From sequence record NC_028780.1: 64,000 nucleotides of DNA; one strand, written 5' to 3'. Below the pieces are notes generated by a model. That model saw only the letters and a list, made by a program, of their open reading frames with translations. It searched no databases and had not been told where the DNA came from. The position numbers and the translations under genes were made by a program. Positions 1,007 to 36,713 of this stretch are shown one piece after another. The DNA is from Escherichia phage slur07. Each line of letters begins with the position of its first letter. Position 1 is the stretch's first letter.

Positions 1007-2986
1007 TTAACCTGCAAGACCAGTTAACTCATCGAAGTCTGCGCCAGTAGCAGTTGCTACGAAGTTTAAGGTAATGTAGTTAATGCTTCTAGCCGGTTGG
1101 ATGTAGAATGTTGCAACAAACTCATTTCTATCAATTACTGACGGAGTATTATTTGTTGTATCGCAAACTACACGATATTCATAAATTCCACCGAGAGCTT
1201 TAATTCCCTGTAAGTACTGGGCAGTTTCTGTGCGGAATGATGAACGAGTAAACGCGTTGTTTAATTCGAACAAACGATATTTTGAACTACGTCCGATATT
1301 CGTTTTCAACATATTAAACAGACGACGAACGTTAATACGATCAAACGGAGAAGGAACAGAAGTAGCTGTTTTATCACCATACAATACGTAACCATCACCA
1401 CCTGTACCAGTTACTGGGTTGATAGCTTCTTGATATAAACGGTCGCGCTGAGCTTGGCGAGTTTCAATAGCCAGTTTAATAACGTTAAGAATCTGACCAC
1501 GATTATAACCAGCTGGAGACATCCAAGTCTGAGATACGTTATCAGTTCTTGCGCATAAACCAGCAATATCAGCTGCTAATGGAACCCAACGATTCACATC
1601 ATTATATTTGTCATACTGATACTTATAGTTACCATCAATTGCTGCGTAGGTTGAACTGATATTAAAGTTATTATCAGTGTATGAACCTGCTGCAGTTCTC
1701 CAATTGACTAAGTTATCAACAGCACGAGTTACAGGAATTCCAACTACAGTTTCACGCGGAGGAGAGCATAATACTAAGCAATCTTGGCGAGCATCCCCAA
1801 TTGAAACGACGTGTTTTTGGACAGTAGATGCTGTTTCTAAAGATTCACCGGCACAAGAACCCGCAATAAACAGCTGAACGTCAACAGATTCACGGTCAGC
1901 AAAGAAGTCCCAAGCTTCCATCAAATCTCCTGCTGTTACTTCAGCATTTGATGATAATCCACCAGACAGAGTTAAAATTCCAGAGAAGCCTTCTGGCCAG
2001 TTTTGTGCAGTTGCAAAAATATATTCTGAGCCACCTTTTGCGAAAAAGTCATCGATATAGATGTTACTATCGTAAATATCTTTTTCACCACGCTTAGTTG
2101 AAAGAACAACGCTTTGAACAATAGCATCATTACGACGAACTATAATAGCGTACTGTGAATCAGTTTGTGGTCCATATCCAAACACTGCTTTAGCAGTAGA
2201 TGCACGAGTACCACCACCTGGATAAATTGGGAGTAATGCAGAAGCTCCTTTTGCATAGTCAGCTTTAGATACGATTTCAATTTCAATTTTATCGCCTAAT
2301 TCGCCTGGATAAAGAGCTACTACTCCTGGAATTCCATATTTTTCGAGATTTGCTTGAAAGTCAACAGCTGTCATAGCAGCTTCGGCATTTTCAATTTCAG
2401 CTAATAAAATACCAGAATCAGTAATAATTTTTCCAAGAGTTATTACTGCAGCTAAACCAGAGGAAGACGAAGAAATTTCCGCAGTCCAGTTAGAACCTAA
2501 TGCTGGATATTCGCCTACTTCTTTCGCTTTAGCGATAATTTTTGCGGTAGGAATATTAATTTTCTTAATTTTTCCATCAGCATCTACTTCAGTAATTTTA
2601 CCTTCTGTTTCAACATCTTCTGAAACATACTTAACAGTGATTTTATCTCCAACCGCGTAGTTACTACCTGGGGTAGAAATAGTGTATTCAATATTACCGG
2701 CAATCGGAGATGAGTTTTTAGCGGTATCTCTATCGACAGCACGCACAACTCGCAAATCATTTCCGTATTGTAAGAAATTCATTGCAGACATAAAATAGTC
2801 AGCAGTTTCAGCTGTAGGTTGACCAAAAGTATTAACTAAATCTACTTCATTTGTAACCTGTTTAATTTGAAAAGCAGGACCCCACTGGAATTTACCGGCC
2901 AAAGCTGCTGTACCAGTAGAGTTATTAACCACGGTGCTTTGAACCGTAGTTTCTTTGAGCTCAATGCCCGGAGATAATAAAGTCAT
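1007..2986 (-). CDS. 18: tail sheath protein gp18
   Basis: 659 aa ORF, same length as T4 gp18; synteny 19-18-17. Confidence 0.92.
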   Translation of the reverse strand: MTLLSPGIELKETTVQSTVVNNSTGTAALAGKFQWGPAFQIKQVTNEVDLVNTFGQPTAETADYFMSAMNFLQYGNDLRVVRAVDRDTAKNSSPIAGNIEYTISTPGSNYAVGDKITVKYVSEDVETEGKITEVDADGKIKKINIPTAKIIAKAKEVGEYPALGSNWTAEISSSSSGLAAVITLGKIITDSGILLAEIENAEAAMTAVDFQANLEKYGIPGVVALYPGELGDKIEIEIVSKADYAKGASALLPIYPGGGTRASTAKAVFGYGPQTDSQYAIIVRRNDAIVQSVVLSTKRGEKDIYDSNIYIDDFFAKGGSEYIFATAQNWPEGFSGILTLSGGLSSNAEVTAGDLMEAWDFFADRESVDVQLFIAGSCAGESLETASTVQKHVVSIGDARQDCLVLCSPPRETVVGIPVTRAVDNLVNWRTAAGSYTDNNFNISSTYAAIDGNYKYQYDKYNDVNRWVPLAADIAGLCARTDNVSQTWMSPAGYNRGQILNVIKLAIETRQAQRDRLYQEAINPVTGTGGDGYVLYGDKTATSVPSPFDRINVRRLFNMLKTNIGRSSKYRLFELNNAFTRSSFRTETAQYLQGIKALGGIYEYRVVCDTTNNTPSVIDRNEFVATFYIQPARSINYITLNFVATATGADFDELTGLAG

Positions 2987-3014
2987 TTTTAATCCTCTTT
3001 AATATGCTTTAATA

Positions 3015-6155
<3,141 letters not shown>

Positions 6156-27085: not shown

Positions 27086-27319
27086 ATGAAAACGTATCAA
27101 GAATTTATTGCTGAAACTGCTGATGTAAAAGTTGAGTTTATTTACACTGGCAAGAAAGATAAAATGGGTGAAATGCCTCATGGAGTTCTTCGTGATGCAT
27201 TAGATGATTTCGGTCAACTCGGTGGTGAAGAGTTTGGCGATTACTTTGTTATCTATGGCCCGGCAAAAGTCATTGAGAAATGGGCTGATAAATATAAATC
27301 AATTTTTCGTAAAAAATAA
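27086..27319 (+). CDS. internal protein with capsid targeting sequence (IPI-locus protein)
   Basis: ATG at 27086 with SD GGAGA; 77 aa starting MKTYQEFIAETAD, the T-even CTS consensus cleaved by the prohead protease; not the T4 IPI length. Confidence 0.75.
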   Translation: MKTYQEFIAETADVKVEFIYTGKKDKMGEMPHGVLRDALDDFGQLGGEEFGDYFVIYGPAKVIEKWADKYKSIFRKK

Positions 27320-28240: not shown

Positions 28241-28756
28241 ATGAATATTTGTTTAGGTACTACAATTCCGCAGGGTTACGTAATTGATGTCACTACCTGG
28301 GAAAATGATGGTGACAACTATAAAACTAAAACACTGTTTGGCGTAGAAGAGCATGAAATCTTACAATTCCAATATCTTTTAAAGAAGTTTAAAAGCAGAC
28401 ATTCTAGTACTAAAGCTGAACGTTATTGTGGTAATGGCTTGTTCAGCGAGCAATCGCTTTTTATTTATGAATACTTGGTTGAAGGACTGTTCTCAGAACA
28501 ACTTTATCCAGAATTCATTAAAAAGGTCTTTGACATAGAAGTTGACCTTGGTAATAAATCCGAAGAAGACGAAGAACGTGTATTTGACTTATTCTTTGTG
28601 AATGGTAATAAAGTGCTTGAAGGACTTATTAATATTTTAGGCAGTGCTTCTGAGTATTATGATTATGATTTTTTGCGTGTAGTTGAGAGTGTTAAATACT
28701 CTTATATAGAAAAAGAAATTGTTTTGCCGACCGTTAAAATGTTTAATTTGCTTTAA
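28241..28756 (+). CDS. hypothetical protein
   Basis: 171 aa from ATG 28241 (GTG at 28232 is an alternative start). Confidence 0.55.
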   Translation: MNICLGTTIPQGYVIDVTTWENDGDNYKTKTLFGVEEHEILQFQYLLKKFKSRHSSTKAERYCGNGLFSEQSLFIYEYLVEGLFSEQLYPEFIKKVFDIEVDLGNKSEEDEERVFDLFFVNGNKVLEGLINILGSASEYYDYDFLRVVESVKYSYIEKEIVLPTVKMFNLL

Positions 28757-28842
28757 GAATTATTTGTTATTATTAATTCATACCGCACTGATTAATACCC
28801 TCTATCATCAAGGGTTCTTGTTTGAGAGCCTTTGTTAATAAT

Positions 28843-28915
28843 TGGGAATTAGCCAAGTTGGTAAGGCACTGGATTTTGATTCCAGGATGCAAAGGTTCGA
28901 GTCCTTTATTCCCAG
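28843..28915 (+). tRNA. tRNA-Gln (anticodon UUG)
   Basis: Cloverleaf by eye: acceptor TGGGAAT/ATTCCCA, anticodon stem CTGGA/TCCAG with loop TTTTGAT, T-arm AGGTTCGAGTCCT. Confidence 0.75.
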
Positions 28916-28916
28916 C

Positions 28917-29003
28917 GCGAGAATGGTCAAATTGGTAAAGGCACAGCACTTAAAATGCTGCGGAATGATTTCCTTGTGGGTTCGAGTCCCACTTCTCGCA
29001 CCA
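28917..29003 (+). tRNA. tRNA-Leu (anticodon UAA), CCA encoded
   Basis: Acceptor GCGAGAA/TTCTCGC, anticodon loop CTTAAAA, long variable arm, T-arm GGGTTCGAGTCCC, 3' ACCA. Confidence 0.75.
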
Positions 29004-29008
29004 AATTT

Positions 29009-29082
<74 letters not shown>

Positions 29083-29128
29083 ATTTATGACTCGTCGTGA
29101 GACGCTCAGTTCTTTATTAGGGACTGAT

Positions 29129-29737
29129 ATGCATTTTTATCTTTATAAAATAACAAATAAAATTAATAATAAAATTTATATTGGTGTGCATTCTACCGAA
29201 AATTTAGATGATGGATATATGGGTTCTGGTAAATTATTAAAAAGAGCCCAAGATAAATATTGTATAGAAAATTTTTCTAAAGAAATATTAGAGTATTTTG
29301 ACGATAAAGAATCTATGCTTGAAGCCGAGAAAAATATTGTCACAGAAGAGTTTTTAAATAGACCAGATGTGTATAATTTAAAACTTGGAGGTGAAGGTGG
29401 ATGGGATCATATAAATAATTATCCTATGACAGATCAGCAACGCGAATTAATTTCATTGGGTGTTAAAAAGGCACATTCTAACGGAAAATTAAAAGGATGG
29501 TCTTCAAATGGATTAATGAAGAATGGCTTTGCTGGTAAAACTCATTCTCAAGAAGCTAAACGTAAAATAGCAAAAGCAAACGAAGCAAAAGTTTCTGCGG
29601 ATGAAAGAAAAAGAAGAATAGAAATTTCTAAATTATATGATTTTTCTAAACGTGGCGAATTGTCTAAATATGCTAAGCATATTGGCGTAAGTCATACTCA
29701 AGCAAAAAGAATTCTAAATCAAATTAACAATATATAA
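29129..29737 (+). CDS. segB: GIY-YIG homing endonuclease, SegB-like
   Basis: 202 aa from ATG 29129 (MHFYLYKITNKINNKIYIGVHST...GYMGSGKLL); GIY-YIG motifs; sits inside the tRNA cluster as T4 segB does. Confidence 0.8.
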   Translation: MHFYLYKITNKINNKIYIGVHSTENLDDGYMGSGKLLKRAQDKYCIENFSKEILEYFDDKESMLEAEKNIVTEEFLNRPDVYNLKLGGEGGWDHINNYPMTDQQRELISLGVKKAHSNGKLKGWSSNGLMKNGFAGKTHSQEAKRKIAKANEAKVSADERKRRIEISKLYDFSKRGELSKYAKHIGVSHTQAKRILNQINNI

Positions 29738-29740
29738 ATA
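29733..29740 (+). promoter_or_regulatory. TATAAATA motif immediately upstream of tRNA-Ser
   Basis: Exact late-promoter octamer at the segB 3' end, 4 nt before tRNA-Ser; could be chance in AT-rich DNA. Confidence 0.3.
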
Positions 29741-29743
29741 TTT

Positions 29744-29833
29744 GGAGGCGTGGCAGAGTGGTTTAATGCACCGGTCTTGAAAACCGGCAGTCGCTCCGGC
29801 GACTCATAGGTTCAAATCCTATCGCCTCCGCCA
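29744..29833 (+). tRNA. tRNA-Ser (anticodon UGA)
   Basis: Acceptor GGAGGCG/CGCCTCC, anticodon loop CTTGAAA, long variable arm, T-arm AGGTTCAAATCCT, 3' GCCA. Confidence 0.75.
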
Positions 29834-29839
29834 GTTTTT

Positions 29840-29915
29840 GCTGATTTAGCTCAGTAGGTAGAGCACCTCACTTGTAATGAGGACGTCGGCGGTTCGATTC
29901 CGTCAATCAGCACCA
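29840..29915 (+). tRNA. tRNA-Thr (anticodon UGU)
   Basis: Acceptor GCTGATT/AATCAGC, anticodon loop CTTGTAA, T-arm GGTTCGATTCC, 3' ACCA. Confidence 0.75.
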
Positions 29916-29916
29916 A

Positions 29917-29991
29917 GGCCCTGTAGCTGGAAGGTTCAAGCAAGCGACTCATAATCGCCAGATGGTGGTTCAATTCCACCCAGGGCCACCA
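29917..29991 (+). tRNA. tRNA with CAU anticodon (Ile2-type as in T4, or Met)
   Basis: Acceptor GGCCCTG/CAGGGCC, anticodon loop CTCATAA, T-arm GGTGGTTCAATTCCACC, 3' ACCA; D-arm pairing imperfect. Confidence 0.65.
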
Positions 29992-30003
29992 AATTATGAA
30001 TTA

Positions 30004-30090
30004 GGGGAGTTATCCCGTAGAGGTAGCGGTGTGGACTGTAAATTCATTGTCATTGCGACTCGGGTGGTTCGACTCCACCACTCCCCACCA
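30004..30090 (+). tRNA. tRNA-Tyr (anticodon GUA), class II with long variable arm
   Basis: Perfect 7-bp acceptor GGGGAGT/ACTCCCC, anticodon loop CTGTAAA, variable arm TGTCATTGCGACTCG, T-arm GGTGGTTCGACTCCACC, 3' ACCA; D stem and anticodon stem contain GU or mismatches. Confidence 0.6.
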
Positions 30091-30094
30091 ATTT

Positions 30095-30169
30095 GGATGT
30101 GTAGCTCAATGGCAGAGCGATCGCCTGTTAAGCGATTGGTTATAGGTTCGAATCCTATCACGTCCGCCA
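30095..30169 (+). tRNA. tRNA-Asn (anticodon GUU)
   Basis: Acceptor GGATGTG/CACGTCC, D-arm GCTCAATGGCAGAGC, anticodon stem ATCGC/GCGAT with loop CTGTTAA, T-arm ATAGGTTCGAATCCTAT, 3' GCCA. Confidence 0.7.
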
Positions 30170-30173
30170 AATA

Positions 30174-30249
30174 CGAGGCATAGCTCAGAAGGAAGAGCAA
30201 GGACCTTCTAAGTCCTGGGTCGTAGGTTCGATCCCTACTGCCTCGACCA
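30174..30249 (+). tRNA. tRNA-Arg (anticodon UCU)
   Basis: Acceptor CGAGGCA/TGCCTCG, D-arm GCTCAGAAGGAAGAGC, anticodon stem AGGAC/GTCCT with loop CTTCTAA, T-arm GTAGGTTCGATCCCTAC, 3' ACCA. Confidence 0.75.
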
Positions 30250-30560
30250 GACAAGAAGCCGGGTCGCTACCGGCAAGTCGTCGGACTGATGTTCCCTGTT
30301 TAAGGACTGGCATTAATAAATCTTTATGTTTTGTTAATGCCCCCTTATATCACAGCAGAAACGGCGCACCGAATTATCGATTCGAGGAAATATCTTTGCC
30401 ATAAGCCGAGTAGCGTTTTTGACGGAACGTTCGGATATGGTCGAGATATGGCCTTTTAAAAATATTGAGTAGCGTCAACTACTTAATAACCGGGTTCGAA
30501 TCCCGGCGTTTCGTACAAACACTTGCCTTAGCAGGTGGAACCCCGACAAGGTTGCCGCAA
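30250..30560 (+). ncRNA. candidate stable small RNA(s) with tRNA-like T-arm (compare T4 species 1/2 RNAs)
   Basis: 310-nt non-coding stretch after tRNA-Arg with several hairpins (GCCGG..CCGGC at 30258-30274; GGCATTAA..TTAATGCC at 30309-30341) and a T-arm-like CCGGGTTCGAATCCCGG at 30490-30506; ends at terminator 30566-30593. Confidence 0.3.
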
Positions 30561-30565
30561 GGCTT

Positions 30566-30593
30566 AGCCCCGACCGAAAGGTTGGGGCTTTTT
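30566..30593 (+). terminator. rho-independent terminator at the end of the tRNA/stable-RNA cluster
   Basis: AGCCCCGACC-GAAA-GGTTGGGGCT + TTTT. Confidence 0.65.
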
Positions 30594-30595
30594 AG

Positions 30596-30603
30596 TATAA
30601 ATA
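30596..30603 (+). promoter_or_regulatory. T4-type late promoter for CTS internal-protein gene
   Basis: Exact TATAAATA 41 nt upstream of ATG 30644; late expression fits a capsid-packaged protein. Confidence 0.5.
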
Positions 30604-30643
30604 TAGTAGTATATTAAATCCACGAATTAAAACAGGAAATAAG

Positions 30644-31117
30644 ATGAAATCATATGCTCAATTTTTAAATGAAGCGGTGTTAAATGAAGCATCTAGCACC
30701 GAAATTCAAGCTGTCGCAAAAGCAGCCATTGCAGCGGGTAAATATTCCTATAAAGATGCTTCTGACGAATCACGATTCCAATTTGCTCGCGACATGAAAG
30801 CAGAAGGATTTACGGGAAATGCAGTTAGTATGGCCTGGAAAAGTTTAGTTGCTACTGGCGCTGCTTTTGCAAAGGCTTCGGGTAAACCTGCTCCTAAAGC
30901 AGATCCTAAAGTCACACAAGAGAAAAATATCGTTAAAGGAATTATCTCCAGATATGAAGCTATCCTTAAAGAGCTTTTAGTAATCAAAACTGAAGGTCAA
31001 AAGTTAGCTCGTGCTTATAGTTTCAAAGATAATCCACATGCTCATGACCTAGAGTATGTTGAAGACATCCAAAAAATTATTAAAGACCGCATTTGGTCTG
31101 CTAAACAAATCAAATAA
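30644..31117 (+). CDS. internal protein with capsid targeting sequence (CTS)
   Basis: 157 aa, MKSYAQFLNEAVLNEA... (CTS-like MK.Y..F..E); SD AGGAAA; late promoter TATAAATA 30596-30603 upstream; flanked by near-identical terminators. Confidence 0.7.
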   Translation: MKSYAQFLNEAVLNEASSTEIQAVAKAAIAAGKYSYKDASDESRFQFARDMKAEGFTGNAVSMAWKSLVATGAAFAKASGKPAPKADPKVTQEKNIVKGIISRYEAILKELLVIKTEGQKLARAYSFKDNPHAHDLEYVEDIQKIIKDRIWSAKQIK

Positions 31118-31124
31118 CATTCTT

Positions 31125-31152
31125 AGCCCCGACCAAAAGGTTGGGGCTTTTT
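31125..31152 (+). terminator. rho-independent terminator (near-identical copy of 30566-30593)
   Basis: AGCCCCGACC-AAAA-GGTTGGGGCT + TTTTT. Confidence 0.65.
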
Positions 31153-31271
31153 GGTATCTAGGCCTTTCCGGGCCTCTCTAGGCATCATTTAGTTTATACC
31201 CTTTATAATATATTATCCTACCTTTTAATTGCCCCTCCTGACCCTAGAATTCCCTAAAACTTTTTAAAAAT

Positions 31272-31328
31272 TTTTTCACAAAACTGTTTACATCCCTGTT
31301 CTTCCATGGTACTATACAACTATCAACT
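31272..31328 (+). repeat. promoter-module repeat, copy A (21 + 23 nt identical blocks)
   Basis: TTTTTCACAAAACTGTTTACA (31272-31292) and ATGGTACTATACAACTATCAACT (31306-31328) are identical to 46802-46822 and 46836-46858; only the 13-nt spacer differs. Confidence 0.75.
31286..31315 (+). promoter_or_regulatory. early promoter, GTTTAC / 18 bp / TACTAT
   Basis: GTTTAC 31286-31291, TACTAT 31310-31315; flanking sequence near-identical to the promoter at 46816. Confidence 0.65.
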
Positions 31329-31359
31329 ACTGATACAGAAAAACAACTTGGAGAATGAA

Positions 31360-31623
31360 ATGGATAATTACGGCGAACTGTTCAACTTCTTTATGAAATG
31401 CGTTTCAGAAGATTTCGGTCGTACAGTGAATGATATTAAAGTTATCGGTCCTGACCATCCGATGTTTGAAACCTACGCAGTAATGGGTAATGAAGATGGT
31501 CAGTGGTATACTGTAAAAGTTGTGATTAATATGTTCACAGCTGAAAGTTATGTTAAACTGTCTTCTAAAGTTTACCACGATAACGACGAAATCGCAGAAG
31601 AATATTTCAATAATATGAAATAA
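31360..31623 (+). CDS. hypothetical protein
   Basis: 87 aa from ATG 31360 with SD GGAG; own early promoter 31286-31315; track ORF start 31306 lies inside the promoter -10. Confidence 0.55.
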   Translation: MDNYGELFNFFMKCVSEDFGRTVNDIKVIGPDHPMFETYAVMGNEDGQWYTVKVVINMFTAESYVKLSSKVYHDNDEIAEEYFNNMK

Positions 31624-34514: not shown

Positions 34515-35755
<1,241 letters not shown>

Positions 35756-35756
35756 T

Positions 35757-35786
35757 GTTTACTTCCTCCAAGGACTTTGATACTAT
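35757..35786 (+). promoter_or_regulatory. early promoter for denV, GTTTAC / 18 bp / TACTAT
   Basis: GTTTAC 35757-35762, TACTAT 35781-35786. Confidence 0.65.
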
Positions 35787-35813
35787 ACATTCATCAACTA
35801 CTTGGAGGAAATT

Positions 35814-36230
35814 ATGACTCGTATCAATTTAACACTTGTTTCTGAACTGACCGACCAACATCTTATGGCTGAGTATCGTGAATTGCCGCGTGTTTTTGGT
35901 ATAGTTCGTAAACATGCGGCAAATGGTAAGCGGGTTAAAGATTTTAAAATATCTTCCGAGTTTATTTTAGGCTCTGGTCATGTTACGTTCTTTTACGATA
36001 AGTTAGAATTTTTGCGAAAGCGTCAATCAGACATTATAACGGAATGCTTAAAACGTGGGTTTAGTATAAAAGATACTGAAGTTCCTGACATCAGCGATAT
36101 TCCAGCAGAATGGAAAAATGATTATAATCCATGCAAATCAGCTATTAAATTGAGTCAACAACGACTCGATGAAAAAATTTTAATGAAGCCACACTGGTAC
36201 AAGTATTACGGCAAAAATATTTACATTTAA
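35814..36230 (+). CDS. denV: endonuclease V (pyrimidine-dimer DNA glycosylase)
   Basis: 138 aa from ATG 35814 with SD GGAGGAA: [29 protein letters not shown]..., matches T4 endo V; early promoter 35757-35786. Confidence 0.93.
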
Positions 36231-36239
36231 AGGAAACAT

Positions 36240-36713
36240 ATGAAAACATATCAAGAATTTATTACTGAAGCAGCTATTAATTCTCAAATTATTGCTGAAT
36301 CTTTTACTGATCTTTTGAAATTTAAAAAAGGTCAAAAAATCACTGCTGTATTGGATGATGGTACAGAAGTTGAGATGGATGTACAGGGATATAATTATGC
36401 AGTAGATGGAAAACTGTATAATAAATCTCATGCTAAATTTGATTCATTTGACGACTTTGTTAATACAGTTGAAGATGAAAAAACTCGTAGATCCATTGCA
36501 ACTGGTGATGCTAAGGTTCTTATGGCACACGGCCATGAACGCATTCGCGCTAAGCAGAATAAAATGGGCGAAGATAATTTCGCATTAGTTGGTTATCAAT
36601 CTGGTAAACAAACTTATGGTTATCAGCGTACTGCTACCATGTATAACAAAAATGGTAAAATCGCTTTCGTGAATAGTAAAGGTTCTGTTCAGTACGTCAA
36701 ATCATTCAAATAA
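36240..36713 (+). CDS. internal protein with capsid targeting sequence (CTS)
   Basis: 157 aa MKTYQEFITEAAINSQIIAE...; SD AAAGGAAA. Confidence 0.7.
   Translation: MKTYQEFITEAAINSQIIAESFTDLLKFKKGQKITAVLDDGTEVEMDVQGYNYAVDGKLYNKSHAKFDSFDDFVNTVEDEKTRRSIATGDAKVLMAHGHERIRAKQNKMGEDNFALVGYQSGKQTYGYQRTATMYNKNGKIAFVNSKGSVQYVKSFK

Follow-up and report, generated by a model that had tools for sequence, protein, structure and literature searches.

Directly after the transfer RNA (tRNA) cluster of Escherichia phage slur07 (NC_028780.1) lies a small gene, here called cassette A, which is the subject of this analysis. It was studied in a 64,000-nucleotide (nt) stretch of this genome, hereafter the window, and all the features given below are on its + strand. 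The window comes from a Tequatrovirus; across the region, identity is 99.9% with Escherichia phage vB_Eco_Geo and 96-97% with many Tequatrovirus genomes. The coding sequence (30644..31117), starting MKSYAQFLNEAVLNEA, specifies a precursor of 157 amino acids (aa) and is preceded by a Shine-Dalgarno-like AGGAAA, read from the sequence 4 nt before the ATG (30634..30639), and by an exact match to the T4-type late promoter box, TATAAATA (30596..30603), the whole being enclosed by two intrinsic terminators. An earlier interpretation of the letters of the window, made without database searches (the sequence-only reading), had proposed this gene, the exact late promoter upstream of it, a variant capsid-targeting leader on its product and two near-identical terminators differing by one loop base, all of which stand.

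The first terminator (stem-loop 30566-30589, T-run 30590-30594) is contained in copy 1 of a direct repeat (30563..30598), ends the tRNA/rnaC unit and is homologous to the single terminator of T4. The second (stem-loop 31125-31148, T-run 31149-31153) is contained in copy 2 (31122..31157) and ends the cassette. The repeat, as read directly from the sequence, is ~36 nt long with 2 mismatches. Each hairpin (AGCCCCGACC-GAAA/AAAA-GGTTGGGGCT) has 10 pairs, 7 of them G-C, a 4-nt loop and a TTTTT tail, and the two differ solely at the first loop base (G vs A), with predicted RNA folding energies of -20.3 and -19.5 kcal/mol for terminators 1 and 2, respectively. The 24-nt hairpin pattern is found at exactly 2 sites in the window, versus 0.00 expected (100 shuffles). 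As for the late promoter box, which sits 2 nt past the T-run and 48 nt upstream of the ATG, the number of TATAAATA octamers in this AT-rich window (17, versus 10.6 +/- 3.4 expected) is not significant alone; the weight of the box lies in where it stands and in its presence at this same spot in relatives from several genera. An identical hairpin/T-run/TATAAATA junction is present in NBG2, fD1, ECML-134, loci from IMG/VR and the Jiaodavirus KpV477, and the Mosigvirus junction carries the variant box AATAAATA instead. On the + strand, the stretch from the hairpin to the ATG (30566 to 30644) has no predicted sigma-70-like promoter. Elsewhere in the window, other hairpins too are joined to late promoters; the architecture is ordinary in itself, and it is the repeated copy at the cassette boundaries that is the specific feature.

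The cassette A gene is real and is under strong purifying selection, the ratio of non-synonymous to synonymous substitution rates (dN/dS) being 0.06-0.11 against homologues of growing distance, with dS approaching or reaching saturation. A tblastn search with its product returned 510 phage records, in which identity is 95-99% for most Tequatrovirus copies, ~75% for Mosigvirus and ~50% over the N-terminal domain for Klebsiella and Yersinia T4-like phages, and a profile search of 1.84 billion representative proteins returned just 14 relatives. The gene is annotated as 'hypothetical' or 'uncharacterized' in every record sampled, and the protein matches phrog_2280 (E 9.7e-60, its residues 1-157 aligning to profile positions 1-172 of 178), which is labelled 'unknown function' in PHROGs v4. 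In the AlphaFold2 model, which has a mean predicted local distance difference test (pLDDT) score of 71.8, the leader is of low confidence and is followed by a confident helical N-domain (~aa 18-75), a disordered Pro/Lys linker (81-93) and a long helical hairpin (88-155). Searches with the protein against Pfam gave sub-threshold noise only, those against NCBIfam and PADLOC no match, and a sequence-profile search of the PDB no match either; Foldseek with the model had a best E of 0.47 against the PDB and found only its own family in BFVD.

Several records carry a frameshifted or truncated form of the gene, which retains the N-domain only (97-111 aa): that of phage G28 (L025) and those encoding the proteins P0006, P0008, P0009 and P0027. 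In G28, the frameshift falls in a poly-A run at the boundary between the linker and the C-domain (window 30921-30927), which is A8 in this phage, A7 in Mosigvirus and GAGAAAAA in the window, and P0006, P0008 and P0009 all diverge directly past the same ...QEK residues. These truncations could be homopolymer sequencing errors, or natural slippage giving an N-domain-only product. The homologue in KpV477 (L004 ~2496-3027) is interrupted by an in-frame TAA (CCT TAA GCT) and annotated as two short open reading frames (ORFs), and an intact 177-aa form exists in other Klebsiella phages (P0011); the interrupted copy is either a pseudogene or a sequencing error.

The best clue to what this protein might be is its N-terminus. 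Codons 1-10 (30644..30673) encode MKSYAQFLNE, which matches the capsid-targeting sequence (CTS) MKTYQEFIAE of T4. In T4 IPIII, amber suppression genetics has assigned targeting to positions 4 and 7 of the CTS and processing to positions 8 and 10, and the 10-residue T4 CTS alone suffices for the packaging of foreign proteins (PMC9026906). The leader of the cassette A protein has the expected residues at all four of these positions (Y4, F7, L8 – L for the I of T4 – and E10), including both those required for targeting. The L/I-x-E motif of gp21 cleavage sites occurs in it twice, as L8-N9-E10/A11 and L13-N14-E15/A16 (slashes mark the predicted cuts), the second site being provided by codons 11-15 (30674..30688, AVLNE). 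Such a two-site leader is also found in the 93-aa internal head protein of the window and in cassette C (see below). Cleavage at E15 would give a mature protein starting at A16 (30689..31114) of 142 aa, with a computed mass of 15.6 kDa and pI of 9.5, and the predicted neo-N-terminal peptides are ASSTEIQAVAK (from A16) and AVLNEASSTEIQAVAK (from A11).

The leader is also the part of the protein that has changed least. F7, invariant across the family, and the cleavage-site Glu (E15 invariant) are among the 9 invariant columns of the family alignment, a Glu occupies the aligned cleavage site in all homologues, and a leader is retained in homologues down to ~25% identity (MLKFNEFLAE, MINFSDFLNE, MKSFSSFLNE, MKFKEFLAE), with the segment just past it being an indel hotspot. 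To judge by these alignments, leader constancy with indels immediately after it is the pattern expected from selection on what would be a cleavable targeting peptide. In a six-frame scan of the 64 kb with a loose CTS pattern, 4 substantial ORFs and one 17-aa fragment were found, and the three ORFs other than cassette A (27086-27319, 35474-35755 and 36240-36713) are labelled internal head or virion proteins by PHROGs. The gene is thus one of four with a CTS in the window, not the 'second' as the sequence-only reading had counted it.

Virion proteomics, which the same reading had put forward as a check, has detected the protein in the form of a near-identical orthologue. Yersinia phage fD1 (HE956711) carries at the same site g140, which encodes 157 aa and is 98% identical (~4 residues different). 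With liquid chromatography coupled to tandem mass spectrometry of ultracentrifuge-purified fD1 virions, g140 was scored at the strict threshold as particle-associated (PPAP), and it is marked there as having no T4 homologue (PMC8309999, Table S3). This proves that g140 is expressed and is weakly consistent with its packaging; as to packaging, the result is supportive rather than decisive because the preparation was unspecific, since it also held 113 of 277 phage proteins and 672 host proteins, DenV, NudE and lysozyme among them (PMC8309999). For Yersinia phage fHe-Yen9-01, a search found no proteome, and for UFV13 a published paper describes a proteomic analysis of structural proteins.

That fD1 proteins that are clearly non-structural also score as particle-associated would suit a different reading of the gene, namely that it encodes a late cytoplasmic or morphogenetic accessory protein that stays out of the virion, with a CTS-like N-terminus that is a relic of 5'-end sharing between ip-type genes. 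The lack of homology to named internal proteins (IPs) past the leader goes in the same direction. Nevertheless, we find this very improbable, since the leader is the most conserved feature of a protein whose next segment varies by indels, which implies selection on the leader itself, and since a late-made carrier of a CTS should be packaged if the T4 CTS alone can package foreign proteins.

IP genes were reported to be absent outside two loci in T-even genomes (Arbiol et al., PMC2839356), and the annotation of phage PST names IPs at these two classical loci only, its rnaC-e.8 site being empty. Cassette A lies outside both known loci (57B-trna.4, and next to e/denV), between rnaC and e.8, which bears out the remark in the sequence-only reading that this is not where T4 has its internal-protein genes.

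We consider it probable that cassette A encodes a late-expressed, capsid-targeted internal head protein in a cassette locus, a reading to which the logic of the sequence lends good support and proteomics weak support. Apart from the unspecific nature of the fD1 preparation, the points that weigh against this are that (i) past the leader the protein has no similarity to the IP homologues of the window or to named IPs, (ii) early-type promoters lying within AT-rich stem-loops flank the classical ip genes of T4 and of the window, and the flanks of cassette A are instead a GC-rich intrinsic terminator and a late promoter, (iii) gp21 might also cut at an internal L-K-E (aa 107-109), (iv) strong purifying selection, as opposed to hypervariability, fits a housekeeping role as well as one in an arms race and (v) the predicted structure gives no hint of a fold or domain, so that no biochemical activity can be proposed from the model.

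Alignment with T4 shows near-identity on both sides of a clean 559-bp gap that runs exactly from one hairpin copy to the other, T4 having kept a single hairpin and having no gene between rnaC and e.8. The presence/absence indel is therefore real, T2L as well as T4 having a single terminator and no gene. We defined the states of the site by the interval separating two conserved anchors, one at the rnaC 3' end and one upstream of e.8, in a census that is a sample and in which a scan of IMG/VR with e.8 gave 10 loci. The site is (i) empty, with an interval of 63 nt, in T4, T2L, PST and N2, (ii) filled by cassette A, with an interval of 598-622 nt, in the window, NBG2, fD1 and IMG/VR loci, (iii) filled by another gene, cassette B, with an interval of 750-757 nt, in ECO07P1 and Shfl2, or (iv) filled by cassettes A and B in tandem, with an interval of ~1300 nt, in ECML-134 and IMG/VR loci. 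W143 likewise shows one hairpin without a gene here; the left anchor has no match in it, which prevents a measurement of its interval. Presence thus varies among close relatives, the gene being absent from T4, T2L, PST, W143 and N2 and present in ~510 records, and empty sites are a minority of the sampled records.

Cassette B, found in 165 records including RB14 and RB69, encodes a protein of 187-188 aa which starts with the CTS leader MKTYAEFLTE/A and has a AATAAATA box upstream. Cassette C, found in other genera, encodes a 205-aa protein that also has a CTS leader, starting MKTYNEFLNESVLNEA. Both, like the cassette A protein, match phrog_2280 over their full length (E 1.2e-53 for B and 5.8e-60 for C). 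Direct comparison of A and B by BLAST finds the leader only, and hhalign a weak C-terminal match (probability 25%); the homology link between the two rests on the shared PHROG and on intermediates. The C-domain of the Klebsiella type matches cassette C (E 4e-6), and a protein of fHe-Yen9-01 matches cassette B over its full length (E 5e-4). Taken together, these profile matches indicate that cassette proteins A, B and C form one mosaic family, phrog_2280. Nearly all cassette boundaries are copies of one hairpin, usually fused to a T-run and (G)TATAAATA, the exception being the 3' end of cassette B, where a different hairpin precedes the same tail. That the rnaC-e.8 interval is a third internal-protein locus of T-even phages, occupied by multiple cassettes rather than by a single insertion, is a view that we hold jointly with the identity of cassette A as a late-expressed, capsid-targeted internal protein, and with the same good confidence.

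Two further arrangements were seen at this locus. In genomes with cassette C, a 184-aa gene without CTS (phrog_2143), the N-terminus of which looks hydrophobic, shares it with the CTS genes, upstream of the CTS gene in one IMG/VR contig and downstream in another (L017 1572-2880 vs L018 1743-2885), with the same hairpin at each junction, which amounts to a shuffling of modules within the locus. In fHe-Yen9-01 (L023 2422-3537), two CTS genes, the first cassette-B-like and the second cassette-A-like, are in tandem 10 nt apart, both with MLxYxEFLKE leaders in which position 2 is Leu and not Lys, which shows that the leader consensus drifts between genera.

How did the two states of the site arise? 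The sequence-only reading had seen in it an insertion that duplicated the cluster terminator. On this polarity, the gene would have entered a T4-like empty site recently, with the insertion itself creating the second hairpin. The near-perfect 36-nt direct repeat around the gene and the presence of exactly one copy of it in T4 are what such an event would leave behind. Moreover, phages swap such cassettes, and individual genomes may have regained the gene by recombination. The wider comparison speaks for a different history. CTS genes of the phrog_2280 family occupy the place between the tRNA cluster (or rnaC, where that RNA can be recognised) and the e.x genes, directly following the former, in the Mosigvirus Shf125875 and the Jiaodavirus KpV477, and the same order from tRNAs through CTS gene to e.x is found in Yersinia phage fHe-Yen9-01 (with its two genes in tandem) and in a distant metagenomic T4-like contig, which makes at least four further lineages with syntenic homologues. 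KpV477 shares its upstream junction TTTTTAGTATAAATAT exactly with the window and has a different hairpin as its downstream terminator, which means that the flanking hairpins in Jiaodavirus are not duplicates. Both hairpin copies of Mosigvirus carry one and the same uncompensated change in an arm, CCCCTTCC, which implies homogenisation between them. Furthermore, divergence of the gene at this site has reached dS saturation, and filled sites are the majority.

The empty sites themselves argue in the same direction, for they carry differing mixes of the polymorphisms by which copies 1 and 2 of filled genomes can be told apart, in three distinct chimeric signatures. The single hairpin of T4, T2L and PST has GACC, a loop G and a G-tail. 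That of W143 has a loop A, like copy 2 of the window. In N2, AGCC and an A-tail, as in copy 1 of one IMG/VR genome, are joined to the downstream flank of copy 2. Together with the synteny, this suggests that an old resident gene may have been lost on more than one occasion, through recombination between the hairpin repeats, or exchanged via conserved flanks. Loss in T4-type genomes is more economical because of the synteny, the majority of filled sites and the differing hairpin signatures at empty sites, and the T4 empty site is most likely a deletion rather than the ancestral state left behind by a gain in the slur07 lineage. Given the syntenic homologues in several genera, the minority of empty sites and their differing hairpin mixes, an insertion that duplicated the cluster terminator is not supported, and we judge it decidedly unlikely.

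How could an internal head protein encoded in such a place work? Cassette A has the parts of a self-contained late unit: terminator, TATAAATA late promoter, ribosome-binding site, coding sequence and terminator. Terminator 1 would shield the gene from the early and middle transcription of the tRNA cluster, leaving it to be transcribed late from its own promoter. The MKSYAQFLNE leader would then direct the precursor into the prohead core, where the head protease gp21 would cut after E10 and/or E15 and free a basic helical protein of ~15.6 kDa, which would remain in the head and be injected with the DNA. Its likeliest job, by analogy, would be to neutralise a host defence directed at the modified DNA as it enters, a type IV restriction enzyme for example. 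Recombination between the short repeats, or exchange via the conserved flanks, might generate the empty, A, B and A+B states of the locus.

The analogy comes from the internal proteins that have been characterised, all of them shown in 2025 to be specific inhibitors of type IV restriction enzymes. Ip1, Ip2 and Ip3 each inhibit a distinct GmrSD type IV restriction enzyme (PMC12373910), and Bas37_0260, a CTS-bearing 'hypothetical' protein, inhibits McrBC (HIDEN-SEQ preprint, 10.1101/2025.11.20.689424). An anti-defence role is the best guess for the cassette A protein because every characterised T-even internal protein is a restriction inhibitor, and it is a possibility to be taken seriously, to which we would nevertheless give slightly less than an even chance. 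The cassette A protein has no homology to the inhibitors of type IV restriction, which share nothing among themselves either. Like Bas37_0260, it is a 'hypothetical' protein of a T4 relative that is recognised as an internal protein solely by its N-terminal signal; unlike it, it has neither a place at the classical ipI locus nor an experimentally defined target.

IPII and IPIII were long assumed to have a physical role on DNA. The cassette A protein could likewise be packaged and injected, and act as a basic protein that aids DNA condensation, neutralisation, ejection or end protection, a role that its predicted pI of 9.5 and its Lys/Pro-rich linker would suit, as would a conservation (dN/dS 0.06-0.11, ~75% identity between genera) unlike the rapid replacement seen in arms races. 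However, the existence of T4, T2L, PST, N2 and W143 without the gene shows that it is dispensable for head function, the T-even internal proteins of known function are all specific restriction inhibitors, and the replacement of cassettes (A, B and C) at one locus is typical of adaptive accessory genes, which leaves a physical role looking unlikely.

Seen as a presumptive internal protein, the product of cassette A has much in common with those of T4: an N-terminal MK(T/S)Y.(E/Q)F(I/L).E leader with an L/I-x-E site, small size, non-essentiality, variable presence, a basic character like that of IPII and IPIII and an orthologue in virion preparations. It differs from them in having no likeness to them past the leader in sequence or predicted fold, in being much more conserved across genera and in its position at rnaC-e.8 and in its flanks, a GC-rich terminator and a consensus late promoter. 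The locus, for its part, recalls PeSL cassettes (Arbiol et al., 2010, PMC2839356; Comeau et al., 2014, PMC4122927), where a repeated stem-loop bounds small accessory ORFs, the endpoints of indels and replacements fall within the repeat and homologous recombination between short repeats is the proposed mechanism. Unlike in PeSL cassettes, it is a late TATAAATA box that is fused to the hairpin and not the sigma-70-like early promoter that defines a PeSL, and the hairpin is locus-specific, with two copies only in the 64-kb window.

No function is given for phrog_2280 in its label; that its members have a CTS leader, a locus in common and a mosaic domain structure was observed in this analysis. 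No paper turned up in literature searches for the leader peptides of the three cassettes A, B and C, 'undescribed' being meant within the limits of the literature searched. With that proviso, we probably have to do with an internal-protein family at a third, previously unreported locus, which contradicts the published two-loci view. More tentatively, this third T-even IP locus with its mosaic phrog_2280 superfamily might have escaped notice because T4, T2 and PST all lost the gene, and the cassette A protein might inhibit, once injected, a widespread defence that is not among the targets of Ip1-3. This matters because the host's first encounter with phage proteins is with internal proteins, and the family is present in hundreds of sequenced T4-like phages, many of which are candidates for therapy or biocontrol. 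It is a ready candidate where new anti-defence functions are sought and may be a determinant of host range, and the rnaC-e.8 locus is a clear natural example of cassette gain and loss at a repeated terminator.

The three other CTS genes of the window are at the classical loci. The first, at the ipI locus (27086..27319), encodes 77 aa starting MKTYQEFIAE... and matches phrog_8111 ('internal virion protein'); the mechanical ORF starts at a GTG (27068), and the CTS and the ribosome-binding site indicate that the true start is the ATG at 27086. The second (35474..35755), directly 3' of the lysozyme gene e, encodes the 93-aa protein matching phrog_3499 ('internal head protein'), the leader of which is closest to that of cassette A. 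The third (36240..36713), after denV, encodes 157 aa, matches phrog_3155 and has the position and length of ipIV in the PST record. Paralogy of its product with the cassette A protein was considered and rejected, the two being unrelated beyond the leader. The order of this e-proximal locus (34989-36713) differs from the e-ipIII-ipII-denV of T4, with the 93-aa gene overlapping the lysozyme stop codon (ATATGA) and being followed by denV (~35815-36230) and then by the 157-aa gene.

In the window at large, the order is ipI-locus gene, trna.4/.3/.2, tRNAs Gln, Leu and Gly, a SegB-like endonuclease gene, tRNAs Ser, Thr, Met(CAT), Tyr, Asn and Arg, the stable RNAs rnaD and rnaC, cassette A, and then e.8 through nudE and the lysozyme gene e. 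The homologues of T4 rnaD and rnaC (30250..30517, 3' end approximate), assigned by near-identical alignment to T4, close the tRNA transcription unit; the T2L record places the end of rnaC 48 nt upstream of the hairpin. The downstream e.8 unit starts with an early-type promoter-like site (31287..31315, TTTACA-17-TACTAT with TG) that is conserved in T4. A search of 28500-31500 with Rfam found tRNAs only, with no RNA family across the cassette. The GIY-YIG homing-endonuclease gene (29087-29737) is an exact replacement of tRNA-Pro between tRNA-Gly and tRNA-Ser, NBG2 having tRNA-Pro at this place. Residues 15-131 of the endonuclease are 82% identical to the first 117 residues of T4 SegB, GIY-YIG motif included, and its C-terminal half is unrelated to T4 SegB, the gene for which is elsewhere in the cluster, between tRNA-Arg and tRNA-Ile. 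Finally, the window has tRNA-Tyr and tRNA-Asn (30004-30169), both missing from T4, and directly 3' of tRNA-Thr a 'Met' tRNA with a CAT anticodon, where T4 has an annotated tRNA-Ile.

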